The notes under the pieces were generated by a model. The model did not search any database. It was not told the DNA's origin and saw only the letters and a program-made list of their open reading frames with translations. A stretch of DNA of 64,000 nt from Candidatus Tayloriibacteriota bacterium (GTDB lineage: Bacteria; Patescibacteriota; Minisyncoccia; Phycocordibacterales; HO2-43-120): NCBI GenBank assembly GCA_039934295.1, contig JBDTMN010000003.1, positions 10,625 through 74,624 on the forward strand, read 5' to 3'. Both the position numbers and the translations under genes were made by a program. Below are positions 30,776 to 31,088 of the stretch, one piece after another (the stretch's first letter is position 1; each line of letters opens with the position of its first letter).

Positions 30776-31088
30776 CGCGGCTGATGGGTGCTGACCCCAC
30801 GGCCTCTCCCGTGCACTTATCCAATATTTTCATAAAGGCGTGGACTATATCTTCACCGTATCCTTCGATAAACTCAAGACTTAGGTGCTCTGGTATCTAG
30901 TCTCTACGGTGCCCCTTCTCTTTACTTTTTTTTATAAAGTAAAAATATGGAAGGGTTCCCACGGTATTCGCGTACCCCGATAAAATCAGGGGTTAGCATT
31001 CACCGTTATCCCAGAGAGTTTCAATCTGCCGTTTCGACAAAAAGCTGCGTATCCACAGGGGAGTGCTCTACCGTTGAGCTACAGCCGC
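30776..31088 (-). tRNA. tRNA-Asp(GUC)-like gene interrupted by a group I intron (exons 31055-31088 and 30776-30813)
   Basis: Exon 1 GCGGCTG-TA-GCTC-AACGGTA-GAGC-A-CTCCC-CTGT; exon 2 CAC-GGGAG-AGGCC-GTGGG-GTCAGCA-CCCAT-CAGCCGC-G. The acceptor and anticodon stems pair perfectly. The spliced loop CTGTCAC equals the E. coli tRNA-Asp loop, and the discriminator is G73. An Ala(UGC) reading via a different splice junction is possible but less consistent with P1. The T-loop sequence is atypical. Confidence 0.65.
30814..31054 (-). ncRNA. Group I intron (241 nt, no ORF) in the tRNA anticodon loop
   Basis: 5' exon ends in U and pairs with the intron GCAG (P1 CUGU/GCAG, loop GGAUAC). Conserved R-like GUAGAGACUAGAUACC and S element AAGAUAUAGUCC (P7 GACUA/UAGUC). 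The intron ends in G. Confidence 0.7.

Follow-up and report, generated by a model that had tools for sequence, protein, structure and literature searches.

Group I introns that interrupt tRNA-Asp(GUC) and tRNA-Asn(GUU) of Patescibacteria between positions 35 and 36 (35/36) were described by Nakagawa, Amikura, Omae and Suzuki (mSystems 2026, PMC13011429; bioRxiv 10.1101/2025.07.03.662931). Their set came from 95 complete genomes, was collected at an E-value cut-off of <1e-4 rather than at the gathering score, and includes three tRNA-Asp sequences given in a supplementary table. Precise self-splicing in vitro was demonstrated for one tRNA-Asn intron and one tRNA-Asp intron (GCA_001029755.1, at 35/36), and was abolished when the terminal G was mutated to C. 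Nearly all of these introns lack homing endonuclease genes; they were classed as IA and form a different clade from the classical IC introns. ARAGORN and tFind often shift their boundary by two nucleotides, giving Thr(UGU) or Ala(UGC) (PMC13011429). Here we analysed a 64-kb stretch of contig JBDTMN010000003.1 (the window, to which all coordinates refer) and identified what is very probably a functional tRNA-Asp(GUC) gene of Candidatus Taylorbacteria, split between U35 and C36 by a self-splicing group I intron without an open reading frame (ORF).

The window intron adds a further member to this class, whose description and in vitro self-splicing date from 2025-2026, and is not new in kind. Over aligned positions it is 80% identical to the tRNA-Asp intron of GCA_023898525.1 (Paceibacteria), and it is 69% and 67% identical to two published Microgenomatia introns, the 69% match being the in vitro-spliced GCA_001029755.1. 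It shares with the published 35/36 introns the phylum, the host tRNA, the site and the lack of a homing endonuclease gene, as well as being missed by standard tRNA finders and running the risk of an Ala(UGC) mis-call (PMC13011429). It differs in coming from a Candidatus Taylorbacteria metagenome-assembled genome (MAG) outside the 95 complete genomes, in its longer P6 extension and short 21-nt leader, and in the tRNA itself, which has the T-loop GUCAGCA and a 7-nt D-loop, whereas all three published tRNA-Asp genes have the T-loop UUCGAGU. The affiliation agrees with a 227-aa ORF in the window that is 100% identical to ABI430_01270 of a Candidatus Taylorbacteria bacterium (Patescibacteria group, Parcubacteria group). 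An earlier note on this DNA had called tRNA-Asp an uncommon host; this was reasonable but has been overtaken, as the work cited above describes exactly this host and position.

The classical insertion sites are 34/35 in cyanobacterial tRNA-Leu(UAA), 33/34 in tRNA-fMet and 36/37 in Agrobacterium tRNA-Arg(CCU) (PMC13011429). Like the window intron, classical bacterial IC3 tRNA introns (including that of Azoarcus tRNA-Ile(CAU)) are about 200-250 nt long, ORF-less and located in the anticodon loop, form P1 from anticodon-loop nucleotides, carry GNRA loops in L2 and L9, and have a GUAGAGACUAGA-type J6/7-P7 sequence; the classical introns self-splice with guanosine. They differ from the window intron, at 35/36, in insertion site and in host tRNA.

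The tRNA-Asp gene and its intron are read on the minus strand, and consist of the following parts:

31088-31055, minus strand: tRNA-Asp exon 1 (GCGGCUGUAGCUCAACGGUAGAGCACUCCCCUGU), collinear with intron-less orthologues; contains the acceptor 5' strand, D-arm, anticodon stem 5' strand and loop nucleotides C32, U33, G34 and U35
31054-30814, minus strand: group I intron, 241 nt, ORF-less, with its final G at 30814
30813-30776, minus strand: tRNA-Asp exon 2 (CACGGGAGAGGCCGUGGGGUCAGCACCCAUCAGCCGCG), placed by T stem and acceptor covariation; contains C36, A37 and C38, the anticodon stem 3' strand, variable loop AGGCC, T-arm, acceptor 3' strand and G73

When joined, the exons form a 72-nt cloverleaf in which the acceptor (GCGGCUG/CAGCCGC), D (GCUC/GAGC) and anticodon (CUCCC/GGGAG) stems are all perfect. 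The anticodon loop is CUGUCAC, the T-arm is GUGGG-GUCAGCA-CCCAU, the short D-loop is AACGGUA and the discriminator is G73; CCA is not encoded at the 3' end. The ligated sequence has the full set of aspartate identity elements established for tRNA-Asp of E. coli and yeast (G73, G34-U35-C36, C38 and G10). ARAGORN recognised the ligated exons as tRNA-Asp(gtc) of 73 nt, and did not find the interrupted tRNA-Asp gene in the genomic sequence, with its intron option included.

We sought an ORF on the sense strand of the intron and found none, as all three frames are full of stops. The intron can be folded into a group I core with the following elements, whose helix statistics refer to an alignment of 26 homologous tRNA-Asp precursors:

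31045..31058, minus strand: P1 hairpin, in which exon CCUGU and an intron G pair with a C-GCAGG-type intron region (31049-31045)
31025..31041, minus strand: P2 hairpin UUUGUC/GGCAGA with a GAAA-type loop; 6/6 pairs double-changed, 98.7% of cells paired
31011..31016, minus strand: P3 5' strand CUCUGG, with partner CCAGAG at 30888-30893; 100% paired, double changes in 4/6 pairs
30908..31006, minus strand: P4-P5-P6 domain
31006-31001/30966-30961, minus strand: P4; 100% paired, A-U/U-A swap 13:13
30959-30950/30918-30908, minus strand: P6 and P6a; 4 P6a pairs with double changes, A/U-rich P6b extension
30907-30892, minus strand: R element GUAGAGACUAGAUACC, containing the P7 5' strand GACUA (30902-30898) and the start of the P3 3' strand
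30854..30887, minus strand: P8 hairpin CACC...GGUG; 100% paired, double changes in 3/4 pairs
30853-30842, minus strand: S element AAGAUAUAGUCC, containing J8/7 and the P7 3' strand UAGUC (30847-30843); invariant
30821..30838, minus strand: P9 hairpin; 90% paired, 5 pairs double-changed, GAAA loop invariant (G258-A261)

The 5' splice site is marked in P1 by a wobble between U35 (31055) and G (31048) (U34.G41). This U.G pair is found in 26/26 sequences, while the first intron pair alternates between A-U, G-C and C-G. Both strands of P7 (GACUA/UAGUC) are invariant, as is the intron-terminal G (30814, column G275). Pairing in P3, P4, P6a and P8 is 100% or 82-100%, and these helices show compensatory changes. 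Judged by eye, P8 follows directly on the P3 3' strand, leaving no P7.1/P7.2 insert. The P4-P6 domain also holds P5 and a P5a hairpin that is 52% paired, being poorly aligned because its length varies. P9 of the window copy contains two tandem U.U mismatches, an arrangement also present in one other locus (L047) and in the published GCA_023898525.1.

Homologues were retrieved by scanning species-representative genomes with the R-element pattern GTAGAGACTAKATACC, which gave at least 120 loci, almost all of them in Patescibacteria MAGs; the closest, among the matches listed, are in Nomurabacteria, Paceibacterota and similar MAGs. We assigned the host tRNA by trying every U...G junction pair that restored the anticodon stem and passing the products to ARAGORN. 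Among the 120 matches listed, the intron lies at 35/36 in at least 31 tRNA-Asp(GUC), about 14 tRNA-Asn(GUU) and about 13 tRNA-Tyr(GUA) genes, and at 34/35 in about nine tRNA-Leu(UAA) genes; the host could not be assigned for 45. The 26 tRNA-Asp precursors were aligned to a hand-drawn group I model plus cloverleaf. Standard pairs occupy 94.8% of cells, compared with 39-49% when the 3' partners were slid by 1-3 columns, and 41/74 pairs show changes on both sides; 0/500 shuffles reached any of these measures. Covariation is seen in P2, P3, P4, P6a, P8 and P9 and in each of the four tRNA stems; of these stems, the acceptor, D and anticodon stems are 99-100% paired with compensatory changes. The invariance of the R element and the P7 5' strand is partly by construction, because the homologues were retrieved with that pattern.

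The Rfam model RF00028 (Intron_gpI) aligned to 30821-31051 on the minus strand over model positions 1-253, the whole model, with a score of 43 bits. The E-value was 1.7e-9 when 901 nt were searched and 1.2e-7 across the whole window, values far from those expected of a chance match. The default Rfam scan of the window listed only two ordinary tRNAs and no intron at the gathering threshold, because the gathering score of RF00028 is 50 bits; an E-value threshold reveals the intron. The Rfam search that the earlier note proposed thus gives an end-to-end match by E-value, below the gathering score. What that note had read from the sequence holds on the minus strand: the exons that rebuild a cloverleaf with perfect acceptor and anticodon stems (now also called Asp(gtc) by ARAGORN), the loop CUGUCAC and discriminator G73, the 241-nt ORF-less intron in the anticodon loop, P1 with U.G at the splice site, the R-like and S elements, P7 and the 3'-terminal G. 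Its overall model of a split tRNA-Asp(GUC) gene is now supported by the covariance model, the 26 covarying homologues, intron-less orthologues and homology to the published introns.

Based on the structure, the covariation and the tested homologue, we predict with high confidence that guanosine-initiated self-splicing restores the GUC anticodon. The precursor would be transcribed from its own promoter (-10 box at 31115-31110) to a terminator at 30766-30748. The exon-1 end CCUGU would pair with the internal guide, a GCAGG-type sequence, to form P1, placing U35 in the U.G wobble. The core, comprising P3-P8 with the guanosine pocket in P7, the P4-P6 domain and GAAA tetraloops in L2 and L9, would bind free guanosine, which would attack after U35. 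The intron-terminal G (30814) would then enter the pocket and the free 3'-OH of U35 would attack before C36, so that exon joining restores the loop CUGUCAC. RNase P, 3' trimming and CCA addition would finish the tRNA. The promoter, terminator and maturation steps are predicted by inference.

Several observations weigh against this interpretation. The Rfam score lies below the curated threshold, and the window intron has the two U.U mismatches in P9, only 2-3 P5 pairs and no obvious P10. Catalysis by the window sequence itself is a prediction from that of the in vitro-spliced homologue. In the tRNA, G54 and G58 replace the near-universal U54 and A58. Finally, 64 kb of the genome is in view, and this cannot be claimed to be the sole tRNA-Asp gene. 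A different product would also result if the junction lay two nucleotides upstream on both sides, at 33/34: the shifted exons fold into a cloverleaf that ARAGORN calls tRNA-Ala(tgc), and both readings are allowed in 17 of the 31 tRNA-Asp loci among the 120 matches listed. At 33/34, however, the splice-site nucleotide would sit in a U-A pair, while the invariant U.G (26/26) falls at U35. Alanine identity is defined by G3.U70 and A73, neither of which is present in this acceptor, which has G3-C70 and G73. Intron-less genes speak for the same position. We scanned metagenome contigs with the odd T-arm pattern GGGGTCRGCACCCWTC and obtained 17 low-GC loci in tRNA-Asp context (14 intron-less, 3 intron-bearing), plus many GC-rich chance matches. 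The 14 intron-less genes have the same D-loop and T-loop as the window gene and are called tRNA-Asp(gtc) by ARAGORN; across the junction they read CCUGUCACG, the same as the ligated exons (CCUGU joined to CACG), with the loop CUGUCAC and hence GUC rather than UGC. In one of them (L220), the stretch from AGAGCAC in the D-arm to the end of the T-arm matches the ligated exons without a difference, and this comparison puts the intron at the U35/C36 boundary. The published study applied the same boundary test; there, the 35/36 product of the homologue was sequenced and the two-nucleotide shift was reported as an annotation error (PMC13011429). The Ala(UGC) junction, which the earlier note had asked to have checked, is therefore foldable, yet rejected by the U.G position, the intron-less genes and the missing alanine identity, and we regard its probability as close to negligible.

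The gene could also be a decaying or non-functional tRNA-like copy, with a canonical tRNA-Asp elsewhere in the genome doing the work. The T-loop (30787-30793) reads G54 U55 C56 A57 G58 C59 A60, off the consensus U54-U55-C56-R57-A58 at 54 and 58, such that the usual 54-58 reverse-Hoogsteen pair cannot form as such; the unencoded CCA and the partial view of the genome would fit decay as well. Against this, GUCAGCA with the short D-loop recurs in about 25 genes of different organisms, at least 14 of them intron-less and about 11 intron-bearing (including L049, L003, L042, L012, L063, L034, L123, L174 and L182), with the variants GUCGGCA in L005 and GGCAGCA in L024, a contig with an N gap. With the exception of L024, every gene of this set retains U55, C56 and a purine at 57. 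Compensatory changes affect the acceptor stem, for example GCGGGCG/CGCCCGC in L005 and L220, as well as the T stem, with GAGGG/CCCUU in L042. The promoter, terminator and aspartate identity elements are intact, and intron-bearing and intron-less copies of one anticodon rarely coexist in a genome (PMC13011429). Because the T-loop is conserved in many genes together with compensatory stem changes, the sequence comparison argues for GUCAGCA being a functional, lineage-specific variant; decay is very improbable. The earlier note was right that the T-loop is atypical, but its doubt about function is largely removed. A need for a protein cofactor (maturase) in vivo, possibly from a helix-turn-helix (HTH) and LAGLIDADG-like family, would leave the intron a true group I intron; we consider this improbable, if less so than decay. 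It would suit the weak periphery (the U.U mismatches in P9, the short P5, the sub-threshold Rfam score), and LAGLIDADG proteins do act as group I maturases in fungal mitochondria. One member of the family lies in the window:

32013-32696: 227-aa ORF of the HTH and LAGLIDADG-like family, 31 nt upstream of tRNA-Met

In about 27 of the 120 listed intron loci, tblastn located a homologue 40-70 nt upstream of the intron-bearing tRNA gene (Asn, Asp or Tyr) and in the same orientation. The family also occurs beside intron-less tRNA-Asp in 4/14 loci (including L223, L165 and L140), and its window member adjoins an intron-less tRNA-Met. For this reason we conclude that the family is associated with tRNA genes and not demonstrably with introns. 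No sequence profile supports the LAGLIDADG assignment, and a homologous intron splices without protein in vitro (PMC13011429).

Noncanonical T-loops appear to be a trait of the clade to which this tRNA-Asp(GUC) gene belongs. UGCAA-type T-loops are found in the tRNA-Met genes of three loci (L122, L213 and L230) and in a tRNA(CAU) of the window, and the tRNA-Met of L165 has AUCGUAG. The tRNA-Met and tRNA-Leu of the window have canonical T-loops, and the sister lineages L047, L092 and L089 and the published genes have canonical UUCRANY. A literature search on T-loops of Patescibacteria tRNAs found no paper. We suggest that a Parcubacteria subclade may use a tRNA-Asp with G54/G58 in its T-loop; UGCAA-type loops occur in other tRNAs of the clade. 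The occurrence of intron-bearing and intron-less alleles of the same odd tRNA implies that the intron is sporadically gained or lost.

The predicted transcription unit and the RNA that follows it are as follows:

31110..31115, minus strand: -10 box TATAAT (ATGTATAAT), 21 nt upstream of tRNA position 1 and preceded by TTTGAA
30748..30766, minus strand: intrinsic terminator GCCCC-GUAU-GGGGC followed by UUUUU, read from the sequence
30588..30745, minus strand: conserved structured RNA, about 155 nt long and separate from the intron, directly after the terminator

The -10 box probably serves the tRNA-Asp transcription unit. It was read by eye and by comparison, as a simple consensus promoter scan did not list it, and a ..TTGAAA..N..ATGTATAAT box also precedes the homologous genes in L049, L003, L042, L034, L005, L092, L016, L023 and others. 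In relatives (L042, L092, L086, L023, L032, L016 and others), ATGTATAAT and the tRNA are separated by a conserved leader, about 65 nt long, that contains a hairpin (such as UUCCUUAAGAGGAA). The window lacks it and has 21 nt only (31089-31109), which contain AAGGAGG followed by an AUG that overlaps tRNA positions -2 to 1. An inverted copy of the tRNA 3' strand CAGCCGCGCAAG at 30730-30741 allows the terminator stem to reach about 22 bp. An Rfam 'mir-4529' match is spurious and corresponds to this terminator hairpin. Motifs of the form GGACTTGAACTG downstream of the relatives were considered as inverted T-arms of a second tRNA gene, and proved to be mostly -35/-10 promoters (TTGGAC..TGnTATAAT) of the next gene.

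The structured RNA downstream of the terminator (158 nt) has a minimum free energy of -80.7 kcal/mol (z = -6.9). The tRNA-Asp acceptor stem reappears in its closing stem, and the 3' end of the tRNA is repeated in its last ~20 nt (30613-30596, CAGCACCCgagAGCCGCG). In the next helix, a copy of T-loop nucleotides 56-60 and of the T-stem 3' strand pairs with an inverted copy, the T-loop/T-stem piece UGGGUGCUGAC at 30708-30698. Homologues lie directly 3' of intron-less tRNA-Asp genes (L140:4708-4858 and L176:2198-2354), and 20/58 pairs show compensatory changes on both sides among the three sequences. Related direct and inverted copies occur in at least eight other loci. In looser versions (L042, L084, L044, L019, L101, L089 and L016) the direct copy, located 134-163 nt downstream, begins within the T-loop, and the inverted T-loop piece lies in between; L035 carries three tandem 139-nt units. 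The RNA has no Rfam match. It is not a tmRNA, as ARAGORN -m found none and the RNA has G3-C70 with a G discriminator, lacks a T-arm hairpin and is too short. Duplication of an integrase att site is not supported as the origin of the tRNA 3'-end repeat, since no integrase gene lies close by and the units span only 139-165 bp. In the E. coli tyrT operon, 178-bp repeats (rtT RNA, RF00391) likewise stand directly 3' of a tRNA gene and each end in a copy of the tRNA 3' terminus. The downstream RNA resembles them in this arrangement, but has no sequence or Rfam similarity to rtT, and its units add the inverted copy that pairs with the T-loop/T-stem part to form an acceptor/T-arm-like stack. We speculate that this RNA may mimic the acceptor/T-arm part of tRNA-Asp and might undergo processing, or even charging, in the manner of a minihelix.

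The tRNA-Asp gene belongs to a cluster that also contains:

32821-33125, plus strand: second group I intron, 305 nt; Intron_gpI 48.3 bits, E 3e-9, just under threshold
32789-32820 and 33126-33165, plus strand: exons of a 72-nt tRNA(CAU) split at 33/34
31197-31721, minus strand: 174-aa ORF between tRNA-Met and tRNA-Asp, where relatives have about 48 nt

In the intron-less relatives L149 and L229, a tRNA(CAU) of 72 nt on the opposite strand, tRNA-Met and tRNA-Asp lie within about 400 nt. Four insertions expand this cluster to 2.4 kb in the window: the tRNA(CAU) intron, the 227-aa ORF, the 174-aa ORF and the tRNA-Asp intron. The second intron is 1.7 kb from the tRNA-Asp gene. Its spliced tRNA(CAU) is called tRNA-Met by ARAGORN and has U1-A72, a 3-bp D stem without G18G19 and the T-loop UGCAAUU. 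Bacterial initiator tRNAs have a 1:72 mismatch. Because the intron-less orthologues (L122, L220, L149 and L229) have this mismatch, sequence comparison suggests that the window tRNA(CAU) is the initiator tRNA-fMet. The 174-aa ORF has no Pfam match and is followed by a good terminator (31158-31180); apart from the identical contig L001, no record with an identical protein is known. An exact-protein look-up returned nothing for this ORF, and for a NUDIX ORF only the identical 4.2-kb Logan contig L001 (metagenome runs SRR26386571 and SRR26386572). We considered a phage origin of the locus; blastn against a phage collection gave only a 38-nt match to a Vibrio phage, and by this search the locus does not derive from a phage.

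Elsewhere, the window (about 43% GC) encodes CysRS, DnaB and SecY. Two giant ORFs on the minus strand, 13303-20817 and 35436-43880, encode 2504 and 2814 aa; giant ORFs are typical of Patescibacteria genomes. A 91-nt 'tRNA-???' called by ARAGORN at 50641-50731 (minus strand) is probably spurious, given its mismatched acceptor stem, two-base anticodon and lack of Rfam support. A long, perfect-looking hairpin at 47070-47146 (both strands) gives weak, meaningless matches to microRNA families (39 bits, E 4e-4) and is likely a bidirectional terminator or palindrome.

The tRNA-Asp(GUC) gene described here illustrates how genomes of this group can be misread. Standard tRNA finders miss it, as ARAGORN did, so that annotation would record no tRNA-Asp and underrate the completeness of the genome, and the two-nucleotide ambiguity can yield a false tRNA-Ala. 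The known class, so far three tRNA-Asp cases from complete genomes, now also counts dozens of loci in MAGs and metagenomes (at least 31 among the 120 matches listed), and intron-bearing and intron-less alleles of the same unusual tRNA stand side by side, the pattern expected of sporadic intron gain and loss. Free-standing HTH and LAGLIDADG-like genes just 5' of tRNA genes could supply in trans a homing (or maturase) function, which the ORF-less tRNA introns of Patescibacteria lack; if true, trans homing would contradict the published inference that Patescibacteria introns are largely immobile. That a subclade with the G54/G58 T-loop, a tRNA-Asp-mimic RNA and trans-acting LAGLIDADG-like genes should all hold together is a tentative and rather unlikely proposal. 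If confirmed, however, the T-loop, the RNA sharing the tRNA 3' end and the LAGLIDADG-like ORFs could matter more than the intron itself, as they bear on the relaxed rules of tRNA structure in reduced genomes and on the spread of ORF-less introns.

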